Assembly (NCBI GenBank): GCA_014728035.1
Contig: WJMJ01000151.1
Span: forward strand, 1 to 37,327
Direction: 5' to 3'
DNA length: 37,327 nt
Origin: Promethearchaeota archaeon
GTDB taxonomy: Archaea > Asgardarchaeota > Thorarchaeia > Thorarchaeales > Thorarchaeaceae
Notes under the pieces: generated by a model
Databases searched by the model: none
Seen by the model: only the letters and a program-made list of their open reading frames with translations
Told to the model about the DNA's origin: nothing
Program-made: the position numbers and the translations under genes
Shown: positions 25,072 to 34,774 of the stretch, piece by piece
Numbering within the stretch: position 1 is the first letter of the stretch
How the letters are laid out: each line of letters starts with the position of its first letter

Positions 25072-25653
25072 CTAGCCAATAAATTTGTCACTTTCTTTTC
25101 CTTCCTCAGCATCTGACATCATTCGAAGAAGTTTCGTAAAAGCACCAACTACGTTCTCACCGGTCTTAGCTGAGGTCTCTACATACACGGCCGGAACTTC
25201 GAGTTTCTCCATGAAGTATTCTGTAAATTCTTCTCCTTCTTCAGTCGTAACTTCGTTATCCACAGTTCCTCTCAGGTCTATTTTGTTTGCAACAATTATT
25301 GTCGGCGGGAGCTTACCCATGTTCTTGTACGCTTCCACTAACCATTTACTCGCATTGTCAAATGATTCTCGATTGGTAATTGAGTATACAAGTACTATGC
25401 CATTACATCCTTGATAGTAATGTCCTCTTACTTTTTCAAATGTTGGCTGACCTGCCAAGTCCCATATAATGAATTTCACAACATCGCCATCAAATAAAAC
25501 ACGTTTTGTTGCAAGGTCTACACCAATTGTAGCTAAATGCCCCTCGATGAAATCTTCCCCGAGATAGTTTCTTCTTATACTGGTCTTTCCGACAGCACCA
25601 TCTCCAATCAGTACAGACTTCATAATCCGACTGCCATCGTCCTGATTTCTCAA
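25072..25653 (-). CDS. Rab-like small GTPase
   Basis: GDGAVGKTS, ATIGVDL, KFIIWDLAGQ, YYQGC, LVYSIT, ANKID and ETSAK. TTG 25653 lies 7 nt after GGAGG (25665-25661). Confidence 0.93.
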   Translation of the reverse strand: MRNQDDGSRIMKSVLIGDGAVGKTSIRRNYLGEDFIEGHLATIGVDLATKRVLFDGDVVKFIIWDLAGQPTFEKVRGHYYQGCNGIVLVYSITNRESFDNASKWLVEAYKNMGKLPPTIIVANKIDLRGTVDNEVTTEEGEEFTEYFMEKLEVPAVYVETSAKTGENVVGAFTKLLRMMSDAEEGKESDKFIG

Positions 25654-25852
25654 ACTATTTCCTCCATAGTTCATCAATAGCCTATATATTGAAAACATTT
25701 ACGGAAGTATATAACTTTGAACTATCTACTACTCGAGTACCATTGCATGCGGAAATTGAATCAGCTGTTCTACACAAACAATGTTTATACTTTTCTTCTA
25801 GTATTATCATGTTAATGCTTTCAAACAAGCAGATGTTGAGGGATAGTATCCA

Positions 25853-27895: not shown

Positions 27896-28122
27896 AACCG
27901 ATGTTAGAATGAAGTTTTAGTGGTAAAAATCATTTATCAACTATTCATATATTTGTGAATTAAATTTGCTAGCTTAATCCTTTTCATCTACTCTGAATGT
28001 TTGGATCATACTCTTTATGATTGTTAAGATATTTCAAGCTTCACGAAATGATAATAGATATGGATGATCTTGGGTTATGTTCAAGAATGCTAACCAATTC
28101 ATAATGTTTCAAATTTAAAGCG

Positions 28123-28288
28123 AAGTGTTATTAGGACAATATCCGGTACTGGTATATCCGCTAGGCGACTGAGAGAGAGAAAGAGGAAGTCGGCACCCCC
28201 AAGTTGGCATATTCAAGAATAACTCTATTTGGAGAGTATTCACGTCACATGAATTCTATTCCAGACGCCTTAGAGGAGGCGTCATGTT
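28123..28288 (+). promoter_or_regulatory. Promoter plus ~130-nt structured 5' leader with an SD-sequestering hairpin
   Basis: AAGTGTTATTAGG at 28123-28135; hairpin 28264-28283 (GACGCCTT-AGAG-GAGGCGTC) overlapping GGAGG 28275-28279; further stems at 28166-28170/28188-28192 and 28217-28241. Confidence 0.6.
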
Positions 28289-31200
28289 ATGGAGCGACGA
28301 AAACTGAAAGTCAAGCTCTTGACGATTTCTATCGTCTTGATCATGCTTGTAGGGATTGTCCCGCAGGCGGCTTTTGCTGGACAAGTTATGGAGGAAAACA
28401 ACGAGCTTTTCCCACGACCTTTTGATGGATACAATCTTGATACGATTTACATTTTTTACGACCCAACAGATGAAATCCTCAAGTCAGTGGGAGAAGGAGT
28501 TGAAGAATTACTGTCATTCCGATTGAATGGTGTAAAACTCATCCCGATCCAATCATATCAGCAGATGCAAGGATATCTGATTGATGGTCCATGGATTGCG
28601 ATTTATGCTTTGCAATCGGATTTAGATAGTGTGAATTTCCTTGATGAAGAAATTTCTTGGAAACATTTCTATTCTATTTTGAATGATTTTGAATCCACAG
28701 AACATGTTGTTGGAATGGCAAACACCCTCTCTCTTGATCCATTCATTAAATCAACTGATATACGTATTCATCATAGTCAATCGGAAGTGGAGGATGCACT
28801 TATTCTCCTACTCTACGATATGTGGTCTGTAAGTGAACTAGCAAAAAGACGCTCTCATATCCATTCTGATTATCTCAATGCATCACGTGACTTGGAAAAG
28901 ATGACATTAGAGGTCTATGCAGATCATTTCAATGAGATTTTCCAGCGTTCTATTGAACCGGTTGATGCAATTGGAGAAGCTAATCCTCTTGCTGCTGAAG
29001 AACGCCACAAGAAAATGATTGAACGTAATCCCGCACAGATAGAGGAAGCTGCATATATTCGAACAGAGGAAGGAGAACTTGTACCTGTTGATCCTGAAAA
29101 CCTACCTGAAGATTTCAATCCAGCTATTGCGTTAACAACAGCAGAAGATGTAGATTCAAACTCTTTCATCCTTGGTGAACTTCCATTTCTTTCAGGATTA
29201 CGTGGGCCAATAGGCAAAATTGTAGATGTGCTTCTTGATTTATTAAAAGGAGCAGGAAAGACTGTTCTGTCCATTCCTACTGATGCCATTGAATCGATAA
29301 AGGACATTTTTGAAACTATTCAACCTTATCTCGGAATCGTGTCTGACTTTGATGCAGAGAGTCCTCTAAAATCTCTCATCTCTGCCATTGCAGATGAGTT
29401 TCCGTTCCCAGCAAATCTTAAGAGCTATCTTGAACCGATTCTTAAAGCTCTATTCAATCTCCGTGGAGACCTTAGTAGCATCGTAGATGTCATCATGGAG
29501 CTCGTTCAGGGGCTTCTCCCAGAAGTTATCCCAACAGAGGTCATGTCGTTTTTGGATGATGTACTCGATATTGGTGGTGGCCTTTGGGATATGGTCTCAG
29601 ATGTTATCAGTAATGGCAAAGGCGCATTCGATACCATTCTTAGTTTTCTTACAAATAACGTGATGGAGGCACTCCTAAACAAGACTCTAGTGGCTACACT
29701 TGGAATTTCAGGAGATATCTCAAACCTGATTAATCGAGGTGTTGCTTTCATCCAATCAACAATCGGATATCTCAGTTCTCTAGATTTCACCAAGTTCATT
29801 GAGGATATCGGGGACAATCTTCTCAATTCAGCTCTTGGGCTTCTAGATAATGCTCCAGGACAAGAGGTTTTTCAGAAGATCATGTCTGTTGTTAAAATGG
29901 GTTTCTCTGTTGTTGACCTTATCGACAAATTCGATGCGGATTCACTAATGGAAATAGTAGCAGAACTTGTACAGGAATTCGCAGGAGCTTCGAATATAAT
30001 TGGTGAAGCTCAAGATTTTGCGGAAAAGTTACTCAATGTGACGAAACAGTTCTCTGAAGGACTGTCATCTGGACTCAGCAATTTCCGTAACCAGATTACT
30101 AGTCTTCTCACTCAATACCTTAAATCAGCTGTCCCAGAATCAACTCGCACACTCATAACAGATGCTATGGCGATGATTACTGGCTTTTTCCATGATGGTT
30201 TCGATCCATCTGCTTTACCAAATATCTTTGACATAGCTGAAGGATTGCTCAATGACCTAGGCCTTGACACTTCTACACTCAATTCTGTTGTTGATGCTAT
30301 GAACAATGCAGTCAAGCCAATCTTGGGAATCATCGCCACAGTTACAGATAGTGACGCTTTGAAGAAGATGATTGCAAATACCGTAAGTCAATTTGCTAGC
30401 TCTCTAGGCAATTTCCAAGATATCTTCAAGACTGCACTAAAATACTTGGATTTAGAAAATGTCTTTGGTTCTATACCAAACCTCGATGATGTCCTAGGCA
30501 CTTTCGGAAACATTGCTGGGGGAATTATGACCTTAGTAGGCTCAATTCGCGACCAGAGCTTTGAAGGTATTATGAATTCCCTTCTAGTGGCTGTCAGTTC
30601 AATTGTAGGCACCTTCCCTTCATTTGACGATGTTCCAATCGATGCAATGCTGAATCTTGTGAGCTCGTTCTTTCCAGAAGCATTTTCATTCCTGTCAGAT
30701 ATTCCATCGCCTGCAGAAGCAATCAACCAAGTTCTCGACATGGCGCAGGGCTTACTTTCTGGAATAATAGACATTCCAATTCTTGAGGACGTACTTGGTC
30801 TTCTGGGTGATGTCAGTGGGATATTCACTGACGGAATTCAATGGCTTCTAGGCAAGGCTTATGATTGGCTTACAGGTCAACTAACTCCATTATTGGAACA
30901 ACTAGAATCAATGATTAATGGAGCATTTGGTGGCCTATCAGATCTACTCGGTTTTGCAGGAGACCTGCCAATTGGTCTTGGTGAATGGTCACTATTCGTC
31001 CTTAGCTTCGATCTTGGCATTGAAGCAAACTTCCACATTAATCCCACTCCCTTCTTTGAATTTGTGAGAAGTATTCTCTTTGAGGGACGCTCACCCTTTA
31101 ATCTTGCATCACTGGGTGAATTCTTCAAGGTCCTTCTTTCATTCTTCGAGATATCACCTCAGTTCCGAGCTGAGTTAGGAGTATCTGGATTTGATTCATC

Positions 31201-34200
31201 CAAGAATGACTTCATGCAATATCTTCTTGGTTTCTTAGGCCTTGAAATATCGTTCTCAGGATATGCTAAATTTGTTCTAACCCTCTTTACCTTCCGTGAG
31301 GGAATGTTCCAATGGGAAGATTTCTTCAAGATAGTCGAATGGGTGCTTTCTCTTGACATAGCTATGTCCAAGACCATCACGCTGCTTGACCTCATTACCG
31401 GAGGTGTTGGTGGAGGAGTGCTGAGCAAGCTCGCCTCGTATATCGGTCTGGATGCAATCAAGATATCCATCTGGTTAGGATTAGAACTAGATATTATCAA
31501 AAAGGCAGCTACTGCAGTAGCTGCTGAGACCTCGACCTTGTCGTTCATACTGACACTAGGCGCGGCGGTCTCGCTTGGGATAGACATTATTGTTGCCTCA
31601 GCAAAATTAACTGGCTCACTAGAGATTATACTGTCCTTCTTCCAGGACTTTGCGTCTGCCAGTCCGATGAAAATAGTATTGTCTTTGGTTCTAACCTTGA
31701 AGTTGAAGATTAAGTTCCTCTGGAGTACGTGGAAGAAGACGTGGACTTGGCAACCAGGCGGTCCCTGGGACCTTAGTCCTAACAAAGGAGACCCCGAGTA
31801 TGAGAATTCAGGTGTTGGATTTGATTCTGATGGTGATGGACTCTCTGATGATTATGAGTCTACCATACCTGGTCTTGATCCCTATTCTGCTGACACCGAT
31901 AATGATGGAGCTTCAGATAAATTAGAAGTTCAGACTATGGGTTCAGATCCGACAGTACCTGATACAGATGGCGATAATCTTCTTGATGGAGAAGAGTGGG
32001 ACCTCGGTACTAATCCAATGCGTCCAGATTCAGACTGGGATGGCACTGACGATTACAATGAGGTCAAGGTCTACAATACCGACCCTCTCTCACAAGATAC
32101 AGATGGCGATGGCCTTTCTGATACCTATGAAATCGAGACCTCTTACAACATGAGTAGTGTCTGGGTACCCCCTGGAACTGAGATTATTGTGTACATTGGT
32201 GGCACTGCCTATACTGACCATACTGACCCTCTTGTAGCTGATACTGATGGTGATACAATTGTTGATGGTGACGAAGGAGTCACTGGCGCTTACTATGGTA
32301 CTGAGGCTCTCTATAATGATACTGAAGAAACCGAAGGTTCAGGTGATTGGGTCATGGATCCTAATCCACTCATCTTCAATAATGGCTTTACTCACCCCTT
32401 AGACCCAGATACAGATGACGATAGCTGGTATCAGCTCTACAACGGTGATGTTGACACACAACTTCCGGATTACTACCTGATGGATATGAACGATGGTGTC
32501 GAGATAGCTGGATTTTGGATTATCGTCTATGATGATGAAGGAGAACCTGAAAATAAACAGGTGTTCACGAATCCATGCAATCCCGATACAGACGGAGATA
32601 CTGGCGTAACTGATAGAACTCCACAACCAGGTGCATGGCTCAACTCAGACGGATACGAACTTGCGCAGACTCCACCCACAGACCCAACTGATGGGGATTC
32701 AGATGACGATGGGCTCTTAGATGGGCTCGAAGGAGTGCTAGCCCAATTCAGTAATCACACTAATGCCAACGATGCTGATACTGATGATGACGGTTTGTTT
32801 GATATGCAGGAGATACTACTTGGTACTGACCCACGTTCACAAGATTCAGATTTCGATATGATAAGTGATGGTGATGAATTCTATATCTTCTTTACAGACC
32901 CTATGGTGTTTGATAGTGATCAAGATGGTGTGAGCGATGGTGAGGAGGTGTATTTCTTCCATAGCAATCCTATGATTGATGACAGCGATGGAGATGGAAT
33001 CACCGACGGAGATGAAATACTGAAATATCTTTCAGATCCGATGGATGAGGATTCAGATAATGATGGTCTGACCGACTTCGAAGAGATTTTCATCTATTAC
33101 ACCTCGCCATTCACTTATGATACAGACGGAGATAATCTATCCGATGGCAGTGAAGTAAAGGAATACGGAACTGACCCGCTTAATTGGGACACAGATGCGG
33201 ATTCTATAACTGAACCGAATGAATATGGTGAGATGACATTCCCAATGTCGGATTATCATGAAGTTATGATTTACCCGACTGATCCTACGATGGCCGATAC
33301 CGATTCAGATGGTCTTTCAGACTCTTTGGAGCTCTACCTTGGCTCTGGGTTGATTCCATGGATGGACCCGATTCCGCTCGATCCAACAAGCAACGATACC
33401 GATCAGGACTGGCTTGTGGATGGTTCGGAGTTACTGATGCAAAATGTATCAGGCATTATCTATCCTTATGTGGCAATATTCCCAGTTCTTAGGTTCAATA
33501 CCTCACCTACAGTTATGGATACTGATAATGACACACTCACGGATTATCAAGAAGTGATGGTCTTTAATTCAGAGCCTGACCAGATTGATACTGATAATGA
33601 TACCATTCCTGACTGGTGGGAGATTTGGGTATATAACACATCAGCTATCTATAATGATACTGATGGTGATGGTCTCGAAGACCAGTTTGAGACGCTGCAG
33701 CAAGTATGGCCGTATGGTGATTGGCCGCCTACGAATTGGTCGATAGGACTAACTAGCGAGAACGAATCTGCTGAGATAACGCCATATTACTTAGCTCAGA
33801 CTTACACTATACCTGATACTGCTACTGTATTATGGGACCCAGATGACTATACACCGATGTATCCAACAGGGGTATTGAATCCCGATTCAGATGCTGATTG
33901 GTTGCCAGATGGTTCAGAAATTCAGTTCTATGGCTCCAATCCAATGGATTCGGATTCTGATGGTGATGGTATCGCGGATACTTATGAGTTCGATAGTGAT
34001 TTCGATTCACTCTCTGACGGTATGGAGTTCAAACTAGGATTACAAACAGCTGCGGGTGGAGGTATCTTCAATCCAGACAGCGATCGAGACGGGCTGATGG
34101 ATGGAGTTGAATATTACGAATATGGCACAGACCCATTGTTAGCTGATACTGATTCAGATGGCTATGGAGACGGTCTCGAGGTCATGGTCGGAACAGACCC

Positions 34201-34774
34201 GTTGTCATATACAAGTAAGGAGGAGTTCGAGATTCATCTTGCTACTCAGAGGGGACTGTATTCGATGAAGATTACAATTCCTGTTGAGGGTGCGGAGGCC
34301 TTTCAGAACACACAGATTACAGTAATCAATTACACAGATTTCCAAGATATGTATTTCAGATATAACAATGGATCTGGATGGAGTGAAAATATCACAATGG
34401 AATATTATCCTCCTGGTGGCGTTTGGACAAGTATTGACATGCGATGGAATCCTGGTGAGTACGAAGTCCAAGTCTTCGGTCTGAACAACACTGGCATTAT
34501 CCACGCACAGACGGTACACTTTACTGTACAACCTGGAGATGATCCTTGGTTGTTGTACCTAATAGCTGGAATAGCTGTAGCTGGGGTCACGATTGTTTCT
34601 GTTGGTTATGTCGGACATCGCAAAGGCTGGTGGTCTCGACTGAAGGAGAAAGTCAGACCTGGTGACGACAAGGGCAAGAAGTCCACCAAGAAAAAAGAGA
34701 CCAAGAGCAAGAAGAAAACGAAGAAGAGTAAGAAGAAATCCGGCCCGGATGAGGGCGATAAGGGAGGTGCATGA
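28289..34774 (+). CDS. Giant (2161 aa) membrane-anchored surface protein with a long amphipathic helical region, a beta-rich region and TSP3-like Ca-binding repeats
   Basis: Signal peptide MERRKLKVKLLTISIVL; about 26 D[ST]DxDG-type repeats; Ig-like domain; C-terminal TM followed by a Lys-rich tail. Confidence 0.9.
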   Translation: MERRKLKVKLLTISIVLIMLVGIVPQAAFAGQVMEENNELFPRPFDGYNLDTIYIFYDPTDEILKSVGEGVEELLSFRLNGVKLIPIQSYQQMQGYLIDGPWIAIYALQSDLDSVNFLDEEISWKHFYSILNDFESTEHVVGMANTLSLDPFIKSTDIRIHHSQSEVEDALILLLYDMWSVSELAKRRSHIHSDYLNASRDLEKMTLEVYADHFNEIFQRSIEPVDAIGEANPLAAEERHKKMIERNPAQIEEAAYIRTEEGELVPVDPENLPEDFNPAIALTTAEDVDSNSFILGELPFLSGLRGPIGKIVDVLLDLLKGAGKTVLSIPTDAIESIKDIFETIQPYLGIVSDFDAESPLKSLISAIADEFPFPANLKSYLEPILKALFNLRGDLSSIVDVIMELVQGLLPEVIPTEVMSFLDDVLDIGGGLWDMVSDVISNGKGAFDTILSFLTNNVMEALLNKTLVATLGISGDISNLINRGVAFIQSTIGYLSSLDFTKFIEDIGDNLLNSALGLLDNAPGQEVFQKIMSVVKMGFSVVDLIDKFDADSLMEIVAELVQEFAGASNIIGEAQDFAEKLLNVTKQFSEGLSSGLSNFRNQITSLLTQYLKSAVPESTRTLITDAMAMITGFFHDGFDPSALPNIFDIAEGLLNDLGLDTSTLNSVVDAMNNAVKPILGIIATVTDSDALKKMIANTVSQFASSLGNFQDIFKTALKYLDLENVFGSIPNLDDVLGTFGNIAGGIMTLVGSIRDQSFEGIMNSLLVAVSSIVGTFPSFDDVPIDAMLNLVSSFFPEAFSFLSDIPSPAEAINQVLDMAQGLLSGIIDIPILEDVLGLLGDVSGIFTDGIQWLLGKAYDWLTGQLTPLLEQLESMINGAFGGLSDLLGFAGDLPIGLGEWSLFVLSFDLGIEANFHINPTPFFEFVRSILFEGRSPFNLASLGEFFKVLLSFFEISPQFRAELGVSGFDSSKNDFMQYLLGFLGLEISFSGYAKFVLTLFTFREGMFQWEDFFKIVEWVLSLDIAMSKTITLLDLITGGVGGGVLSKLASYIGLDAIKISIWLGLELDIIKKAATAVAAETSTLSFILTLGAAVSLGIDIIVASAKLTGSLEIILSFFQDFASASPMKIVLSLVLTLKLKIKFLWSTWKKTWTWQPGGPWDLSPNKGDPEYENSGVGFDSDGDGLSDDYESTIPGLDPYSADTDNDGASDKLEVQTMGSDPTVPDTDGDNLLDGEEWDLGTNPMRPDSDWDGTDDYNEVKVYNTDPLSQDTDGDGLSDTYEIETSYNMSSVWVPPGTEIIVYIGGTAYTDHTDPLVADTDGDTIVDGDEGVTGAYYGTEALYNDTEETEGSGDWVMDPNPLIFNNGFTHPLDPDTDDDSWYQLYNGDVDTQLPDYYLMDMNDGVEIAGFWIIVYDDEGEPENKQVFTNPCNPDTDGDTGVTDRTPQPGAWLNSDGYELAQTPPTDPTDGDSDDDGLLDGLEGVLAQFSNHTNANDADTDDDGLFDMQEILLGTDPRSQDSDFDMISDGDEFYIFFTDPMVFDSDQDGVSDGEEVYFFHSNPMIDDSDGDGITDGDEILKYLSDPMDEDSDNDGLTDFEEIFIYYTSPFTYDTDGDNLSDGSEVKEYGTDPLNWDTDADSITEPNEYGEMTFPMSDYHEVMIYPTDPTMADTDSDGLSDSLELYLGSGLIPWMDPIPLDPTSNDTDQDWLVDGSELLMQNVSGIIYPYVAIFPVLRFNTSPTVMDTDNDTLTDYQEVMVFNSEPDQIDTDNDTIPDWWEIWVYNTSAIYNDTDGDGLEDQFETLQQVWPYGDWPPTNWSIGLTSENESAEITPYYLAQTYTIPDTATVLWDPDDYTPMYPTGVLNPDSDADWLPDGSEIQFYGSNPMDSDSDGDGIADTYEFDSDFDSLSDGMEFKLGLQTAAGGGIFNPDSDRDGLMDGVEYYEYGTDPLLADTDSDGYGDGLEVMVGTDPLSYTSKEEFEIHLATQRGLYSMKITIPVEGAEAFQNTQITVINYTDFQDMYFRYNNGSGWSENITMEYYPPGGVWTSIDMRWNPGEYEVQVFGLNNTGIIHAQTVHFTVQPGDDPWLLYLIAGIAVAGVTIVSVGYVGHRKGWWSRLKEKVRPGDDKGKKSTKKKETKSKKKTKKSKKKSGPDEGDKGGA
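31823..34201 (+). repeat. Coding array of bacterial/archaeal thrombospondin type 3-like (DTDGDGLSD.EE...GTDP) repeats
   Basis: About 26 degenerate copies counted by eye, many with a ~22-23 aa period. Confidence 0.85.

Follow-up and report, generated by a model that had tools for sequence, protein, structure and literature searches.

The locus examined here raises the question of whether the untranslated leader ahead of a giant surface-protein operon in an Asgard archaeon can itself determine how the operon is translated. The window, meaning the whole stretch of DNA that was analysed, comprises 37,327 nt of contig WJMJ01000151.1 (assembly GCA_014728035.1) from a Promethearchaeota archaeon of the Thorarchaeaceae, whose 4.3-Mb genome consists of 173 contigs and is 98% complete. 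On its forward strand, to which all coordinates below refer unless stated otherwise, an open reading frame (ORF) at 28289-34774 encodes a secreted protein of 2161 aa that has a signal peptide and TSP3 repeats, and the gene for an FG-GAP protein comes next. A preliminary description of this DNA had proposed a riboswitch-like leader with two states in front of the operon. We consider it probable that positions 28156-28288 are the 5′ untranslated region (UTR) of this operon and belong to a new family of cis-regulatory RNAs, confined to one archaeal family, which acts as a bistable switch of translation initiation. Conservation of the leader, its two competing folds and the co-evolution of both are in silico results; from these we infer the start site, the assignment of the ON and OFF states, a kinetic choice between them and the existence of a trigger.

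Conservation and distribution of the leader

Orthologs of the gene are present in 45 of the 86 genomes, and in 15 of the 16 genera, of the same Thorarchaeota family, where they encode proteins of ~2180 aa that share 41-57% identity in their N-terminal 400-500 aa. We collected 42 distinct leaders, which fall into 24 sequence clusters, from contigs of genomes and metagenomes as well as from whole genomes. These leaders are 136-168 nt long and begin, after a conserved B recognition element (BRE) and TATA box, with a purine followed by UUCGCUGGGCGRCCGA, the family consensus of the 5′ segment. Further conserved blocks follow in 5′ to 3′ order, namely a GA tract (core GGAGAG), GGUCG together with GCAYGCACCC-CCAGCG, a middle hairpin with (G)CCACCA, the CU tract CCUCUUC, the motif YCGG(N)ACGYC, and GAGAGGAGGC. 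The GGAGG core of the Shine-Dalgarno (SD) sequence is near-invariant in the 42 leaders, and in an alignment of seven genera no column upstream of the SD is invariant outside the BRE/TATA region and the 5′ segment.

Covariance models, termed R1 and R2, were built from the leaders. Model R2 matched 10 of 27 sampled genomes of the family, including the window's own genome (28156-28291, E 3.5e-7), with exactly one site per matched genome that always lies just upstream of the ortholog; it had no match in 124 genomes of 26 other families of the phylum. A pattern search with the 5′ motif, allowing up to two mismatches, returned counts at chance level and revealed no regulon, and the five best extra matches proved to lie in coding sequence or at a contig end that duplicates the same gene (L110). 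Since there is one R2 site per genome and none outside the family, the leader RNA is single-copy, gene-specific and family-restricted, and it is not a regulon-wide riboswitch.

Two mutually exclusive folds

The minimum-energy folds of the 42 leaders split into two classes, states A and B. In state A the 5′ end forms helices P1 (CGCUGG/CCAGCG) and P2 (GCGRCC/GGUCGY) around a loop rich in GA, and helix P4 joins the CU-rich tract to the SD. In state B the first ~28 nt pair instead with the stretch of CU tract, YCGG(N)ACGYC and UUGAGAG that ends at the SD core, by way of UUC/GAG, GGGCG/CGUCU, CCGA/UCGG and GA tract/CU tract. As the strand is shared, the two states exclude each other, and the arrangement has the mutually exclusive, SD-gating pairings of an expression platform. 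In several genera the P1 strand that is released in state B finds a partner in a second, mid-leader copy of UUCGCUGG, and CGGCUGG is the partner of GCCACC in state A; the pairings are thus 1:2, 3:4 and 5:6 in one state, and 1:5 and 2:3 in the other.

Boltzmann sampling with loose criteria assigned 52% of structures to state B, 41% to state A, 5% to a mixture and 1% to neither. With strict criteria, under which state B required at least 12 bp and P4 at least 7 bp, state B accounted for 53% and state A for 43% of the structures of the real leaders, with 3% in neither; for shuffled sequences the corresponding shares were 12%, 22% and 64%. Under these same criteria each state occupied at least 5% of the ensemble in 36% of the real leaders, compared with 7% of the shuffles. 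The unpaired value of the SD core was 0.52 in state B and 0.08 in state A.

Both states can be traced in the window. The 5′ segment UCCGCUAGGCGACUG (28157-28171), the core of the anti-anti-SD, pairs either locally in P1/P2 or with 28262-28277; the competing duplex joins 28161-28171 to 28262-28273, and RNAduplex extends it to 28157-28181 with 28254-28277. Next to it lies an all-purine tract of 17 nt, GAGAGAGAGAAAGAGGA (28171-28187), which in state A is the loop of the 5′ hairpin, closed by the local stem 28166-28170/28188-28192, and in state B is a mimic of the SD paired to 28254-28261. The 3′ strands of the hairpin occupy 28188-28205 and consist of AGUCG (P2) followed by GGCACCCCCAAGU, a degenerate counterpart of the family's P1 strand GCAYGCACCC-CCAGCG that leaves an A.A mismatch in the window's P1; across the family, 72.8% of the P1 cells and 73.1% of the P2 cells are paired. 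The shared strand UUCUAUUCCAGACGCCUUAG (28254-28273) aligns with the orthologs' CU-rich anti-SD plus the YCGG(N)ACGYC motif; in state B its partner is the 5′-terminal 28 nt of the leader, and in state A its GACGCCUU portion binds the SD. The resulting P4 hairpin, GACGCCUU/GAGGCGUC (28264-28283), has 8 bp, i.e., 7 Watson-Crick pairs and one U.G, with the loop AGAG, and is worth -13.6 kcal/mol on its own. It contains the SD core (28275-28279), which is 9 nt from the ATG at 28289, the spacer being 11 nt in 30 of the 42 leaders. In energy the two states of the window lie ~1 kcal/mol apart: state B is the minimum-energy fold (-33.8 kcal/mol) and makes up 89% of the ensemble, and the best fold containing P4 reaches -32.8 kcal/mol.

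Between these elements lies a variable middle domain (28217-28254) with a 9-bp hairpin at 28217-28241 and an overlapping AUUCA/UGAAU hairpin (28238-28242 with 28250-28254), the latter taking the place of the orthologs' (G)CCACCA hairpin (ACCAU/AUGGU, CCACCG/CGGCUGG). No other leader of the family has diverged as far as that of the window, whose P1 is degenerate, which lacks GCCACCA and whose anti-SD partner is a different one. Most orthologs use as anti-SD the CCUCUUC tract further upstream, and the window's partner GACGCCUU corresponds to the loop sequence of that hairpin elsewhere. The SD hairpin, its GGAGG and 9-nt spacer, the duplex of 28161-28171 with 28262-28273, the hairpin at 28217-28241, the local stem with its 17-nt purine loop and the TATA box at 28128-28135 had all been placed at these coordinates by the preliminary description, and each was found there.

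Co-evolution of the competing pairings

Co-evolution was examined in a partner-swap test, in which the duplex energies of all 5′ segments with all pre-SD regions were calculated and the partners permuted between the 24 clusters. For state B, cognate partners had a mean of -22.3 kcal/mol against -19.7 kcal/mol for permuted ones (z -4.3, p ~2e-4), and the controls showed no comparable effect (z -0.6 with the 3′ strand reversed, -0.9 with the 5′ strand reversed and +0.1 with the mid-leader region). The core of the state B pairing retained z -3.3 when the GA tract was left out (control -0.8), and P4 gave z -3.9 (control -1.7). The occlusion of the SD that had been proposed beforehand is supported, P4 also being the consensus helix of the family, and the alternative duplex between the 5′ segment and the anti-SD strand, likewise anticipated for the window, recurs across the family with compensatory changes. 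Where the consensus is CCGA/UCGG, the window has CUG/CAG, L041 has AGCGUCUA/UAGACGCU, and L009 and L027 have ACCAG/CUGGU.

The covariance model of each state was also used to realign 43 leaders. In the model-fitted alignment of state B, 71.5% of the cells are paired, compared with 42-56% for slid partners, and 48 double-sided changes were counted against 29 ± 4 in shuffles. For state A the corresponding values are 69.3% against 40-57%, and 40 double-sided changes against 26 ± 4.5, with P1, P2 and P4 being 73%, 73% and 65% paired, respectively. Column-wise pair counting on ungapped alignments gave 62% against ~50%, a noisy result because of register shifts. Judged on the 42 orthologous leaders, the structure is more than chance.

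Points against a switch and alternative explanations

Several observations weigh against a bistable switch. The leader of the window, taken alone, makes a weak case, as it is not statistically unusual and its relatives carry the argument: its 143-nt fold has a z of -1.25, with 23 of 200 shuffles folding equally well, and when the local SD neighbourhoods of 424 ORFs from the same genome with GGAGG at the right spacing were folded, the window's SD occlusion fell at the 30th percentile, so that 30% of these ORFs hide their SD at least as well. Even in state B the window still pairs G28275-A28277 with the 5′ UCC, and its SD is only partly freed. Shuffled sequences often satisfied the loose state criteria, and the strict ones were substituted. 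The GA-rich and CU-rich tracts pair promiscuously, the reversed controls themselves reaching ~-19 kcal/mol. P1/P2 showed no cognate advantage in the partner-swap test over the 24 clusters (z -0.65), which leaves the local stem of the preliminary description unsupported by this test. RNAalifold predicted no pairs on a plain MAFFT alignment and, with ribosum scoring, returned P4 as the only consensus helix; the fixed-column consensus of state B has a mean energy of +0.96 kcal/mol, and state B emerges only partially when the SD is blocked. This instability of the fixed-column consensus implies that the register of state B varies between lineages. Moreover, the leader sequences are related, and the shuffle statistics accordingly overstate significance, their counts not being probabilities. 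Finally, the whole interpretation is computational and takes a predicted start site as its origin.

The unremarkable single-sequence statistics are what would be expected if the leader had no function and simply carried chance hairpins beside a strong, purine-rich SD. We find this scarcely credible, given that conservation of the leader from the predicted +1 onward extends over at least 13 genera, in contrast to the diverging promoter spacer and upstream DNA, that the covariance model finds one site per genome and always before the ortholog, and that signals of co-evolution are present.

The main rival is a static structured 5′ UTR, in which a single fold matters, e.g., a long 5′-3′ rod that shields the 5′ end of a costly mRNA from decay or positions the SD, with the other fold arising as a by-product of the GA and CU tracts. 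About half of the leaders have state B as their equilibrium fold, this state dominates the ensemble of the window, it takes in the very first nucleotides, the tracts are promiscuous, and one copy per genome tied to one gene is what stabilising leaders look like. Against a single relevant fold, P4 also co-evolves and is the helix recovered by RNAalifold, each released strand has a dedicated partner in the other state in several genera (the second UUCGCUGG copy), and near-equal energies across genera would be odd for a purely static element. On balance we think a static structure unlikely, and less well suited to these data than a bistable switch.

A temperature-driven equilibrium that opens the SD, as in an RNA thermometer or a cold-shock-type leader, was weighed as well. 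The SD does sit in an imperfect helix, and its accessibility calculated in silico increases with temperature (0.22 at 4 °C, 0.39 at 60 °C), but so modest a rise is expected of any structure, the fraction of state B remains flat (0.56-0.59) over the same range, and individual orthologs trend in opposite directions. A thermometer seems very improbable.

A leader peptide or an N-terminal extension of the protein was rejected, and the leader is regarded as non-coding: many orthologs have stop codons just before the SD, indel lengths do not follow the triplet frame, and the ORFs on the two strands of the window's 390-bp intergenic region are all short and unconserved.

Proposed mechanism and candidate triggers

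The two states would translate into regulation as follows. In state A, taken to be OFF, the 5′ end would fold into P1/P2 and display the GA-rich loop, and the CU-rich anti-SD hairpin would cover the SD. In state B, taken to be ON, the ~28 first nucleotides, including the GA-rich mimic of the SD, would engage the anti-SD strand, so that the SD stays for the most part single-stranded; in the window ON would be relative only, in view of the partly paired SD. The choice between the states is probably made during transcription. In calculated folds of transcripts ending just before the SD strand, state B pairing reaches ~100% in 39 of the 42 leaders, which suggests that the anti-SD would be captured before the SD exists, provided that the 5′ hairpin opens. 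The exposed, single-stranded GA loop could serve as a toehold for the emerging CU-rich strand before the SD is made. If the hairpin opened in time, the anti-SD would be captured and the SD would emerge free; if the hairpin persisted, the local P4 would form. The stability of the 5′ hairpin may thus be the control point, and a factor that stabilises it would favour OFF. The GA loop had earlier been put forward as a possible protein or ligand site. It is indeed a loop in state A, but in state B it is also the SD mimic that pairs with the CU-rich anti-SD strand and, as such, a part of the anti-anti-SD.

What might set such a switch is more speculative. In a ligand-binding riboswitch, an aptamer would be built from the P1/P2 hairpin, its conserved junction (GCAYGCACCC) and the GCCACCA hairpin, and a metabolite or an ion bound to it would lock state A or B; the ligand might be a divalent cation, in view of the Ca-binding gene product. 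The anti-SD/anti-anti-SD expression platform would suit this idea, as would the conserved non-helical motifs GCAYGC, GCCACCA and the GGAGAG loop. The element, however, occurs in one copy before one gene and has no regulon, the need to pair in two ways accounts for most of the conserved sequence, the window lacks GCCACCA and has a degenerate P1, and no Rfam class matches. In Rfam 15, the window (gathering thresholds and E<=10) and 15 orthologous leaders (E<=1) produced only chance matches to microRNA and small nucleolar RNA families far below threshold, which agrees with the initial impression that no known class is involved. By inspection, no K-turn signature was seen in the P1/P2 junction and no bulge-helix-bulge motif in the leader, the internal loops of the long-range helix being 1x1. 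We accordingly regard a ligand-binding riboswitch of this kind as distinctly improbable. Of the two-state expression platform first proposed, the exclusive, SD-gating folds have held up, both of them co-evolving, whereas its ligand-sensing part is not supported, there being one copy per genome tied to one gene and no evidence of an aptamer. A somewhat wider version, in which the 5′ hairpin and the conserved junction of an Asgard-specific, riboswitch-type sensor bind an ion, a metabolite or a protein and co-transcriptionally set the translation of the >9-kb operon of giant Ca-binding surface proteins, would be the first of its kind and is offered here as an improbable speculation.

Promoter, start region and neighbouring genes

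The promoter consists of a BRE-like CGAAGT followed by the TATA box (G)TTATTAGG, together covering 28121-28135 (the box itself 28128-28135), and it aligns with the conserved BRE/TATA of the orthologs, its invariant columns in the seven-genus alignment being A28123, A28124 and T28128-T28131. In nearly all orthologs AAAG..TTATAT precedes the conserved start of the leader by 24-27 nt, with a variable spacer. Judging from the onset of conservation and the start of the covariance-model match, the predicted transcription start is A28156 ± 2 nt, the purine just 5′ of the conserved UUCGC/UCCGC, close to the start near 28158 that had been guessed from the TATA box. The locus therefore has the features of an archaeal BRE/TATA promoter and a leadered, SD-dependent mRNA, with a purine-rich BRE, a TTATAT-like box ~25 nt before the predicted start, and GGAGG 9 nt before the start codon, inside the usual range of 5-12 nt.

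Two features of the region between the SD and the start codon are worth recording. An out-of-frame AUG at 28284 opens a frame of 8 codons that ends with UGA at 28305-28307, and in ~10 of the 42 orthologs the equivalent AUG begins a mini-ORF of three codons, AUGNNNNNAUGA, with a stop that overlaps the main start. Such an arrangement may serve start-stop control or re-initiation, or may be due to chance. In addition, the spacer of orthologs often forms a small, co-varying hairpin (GCGC/GCGC, GCUC/GAGC, CACGG/CCGUG), which would shorten the effective distance between SD and start.

Other observations concern relatives of the leader. Those of L005, L008, L014 and L017 (genera g5, g13 and g14) keep the TATA box and GCCACCA, have no R1 match, and have diverged or been replaced. 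A more distant group of paralogs (L018 and L042-L045; ~2100-2300 aa) lacks the UUCGCUGGG motif and retains a purine tract of the GAAGGAGAGG type near the likely 5′ end as well as CU-rich tracts before the SD, and it may be that the same leader design recurs here with other sequences. In G051 the leader and the gene start occur twice (contigs C35 and C126; L023 and L110), both near a contig end and with a 1-nt difference in a C-run, which reflects either assembly redundancy or a recent duplication. Neither ortholog nor leader was found in G001, the sole other genome of the window's genus (97% complete).

Elsewhere in the window, at a distance of 2.5 kb upstream, the reverse strand carries a gene for a Ras/Rab-like small GTPase (25072-25698; Pfam Ras, E 6e-42), in keeping with an Asgard genome. 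No tRNAs were found in the window.

Comparison with known regulatory RNAs

In bacterial translational riboswitch platforms, such as the thiamine pyrophosphate (TPP) riboswitch thiM of Escherichia coli, the SD, an anti-SD and an upstream anti-anti-SD compete. The leader resembles these platforms in its three-strand logic and probably in a co-transcriptional decision. It differs from them in being single-copy, gene-specific and archaeal (Asgard), in matching no Rfam family, and in being a putative switch without an identified aptamer; furthermore, its anti-anti-SD, of which an SD mimic is a part, is formed by the extreme 5′ end of the mRNA.

Long-range pairing of the 5′ end also decides translation in the hok mRNA (tac/ucb, with a metastable 5′ hairpin) and in the leader of the MS2 maturation gene, the trigger being 3′ processing in hok and slow folding of the nascent phage RNA in MS2. 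By analogy, the leader seems to resemble this kind of refolding even more closely than it does the riboswitch platforms, because a 5′-terminal element alternates between a local hairpin and a distant box by the ribosome-binding site and so alters access to the SD. The likeness is functional only, organism and sequences being unrelated, and no processing site, antisense RNA or toxin was seen in the leader, none having been looked for beyond it.

Leaders controlled by CsrA/RsmA carry a GGA in a 5′ hairpin loop and another at the SD, and CsrA is bacterial. This dual-site layout is shared by the GGA-rich 5′ loop and GGA-containing SD described here, but the GA loop has an internal RNA partner in our case. 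Control by CsrA was rejected, as PF02599 was not found in the organism's own genome (98% complete), in which positive controls were detected.

Among archaeal cis-regulatory RNAs, Rfam contains the TPP and fluoride riboswitches. Long 5′ UTRs in cold-adapted methanogens (PMC5378194) and UTR-dependent translational control in haloarchaea (PMC2636863) have also been described. The leader is comparable to these known cases as a 5′ UTR acting on expression after transcription, and differs in matching no Rfam family. A literature search found no described cis-regulatory mRNA leader in Asgard archaea. We contend that the leader represents a new RNA family, one whose mechanism is familiar but whose lineage is not, and that it most likely works as a bistable switch of translation.

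Significance

Post-transcriptional control in archaea is poorly charted, and the Asgard archaea are the closest prokaryotic relatives of eukaryotes. The leader offers a concrete target of ~140 nt in this setting, conserved across genera and accompanied by a falsifiable two-state model, and the covariance models R1 and R2 can be used to annotate it in new Thorarchaeota genomes. The protein that it precedes is probably among the most expensive that these cells produce. If the trigger were found, it would reveal what these uncultured organisms sense when they remodel their surface.

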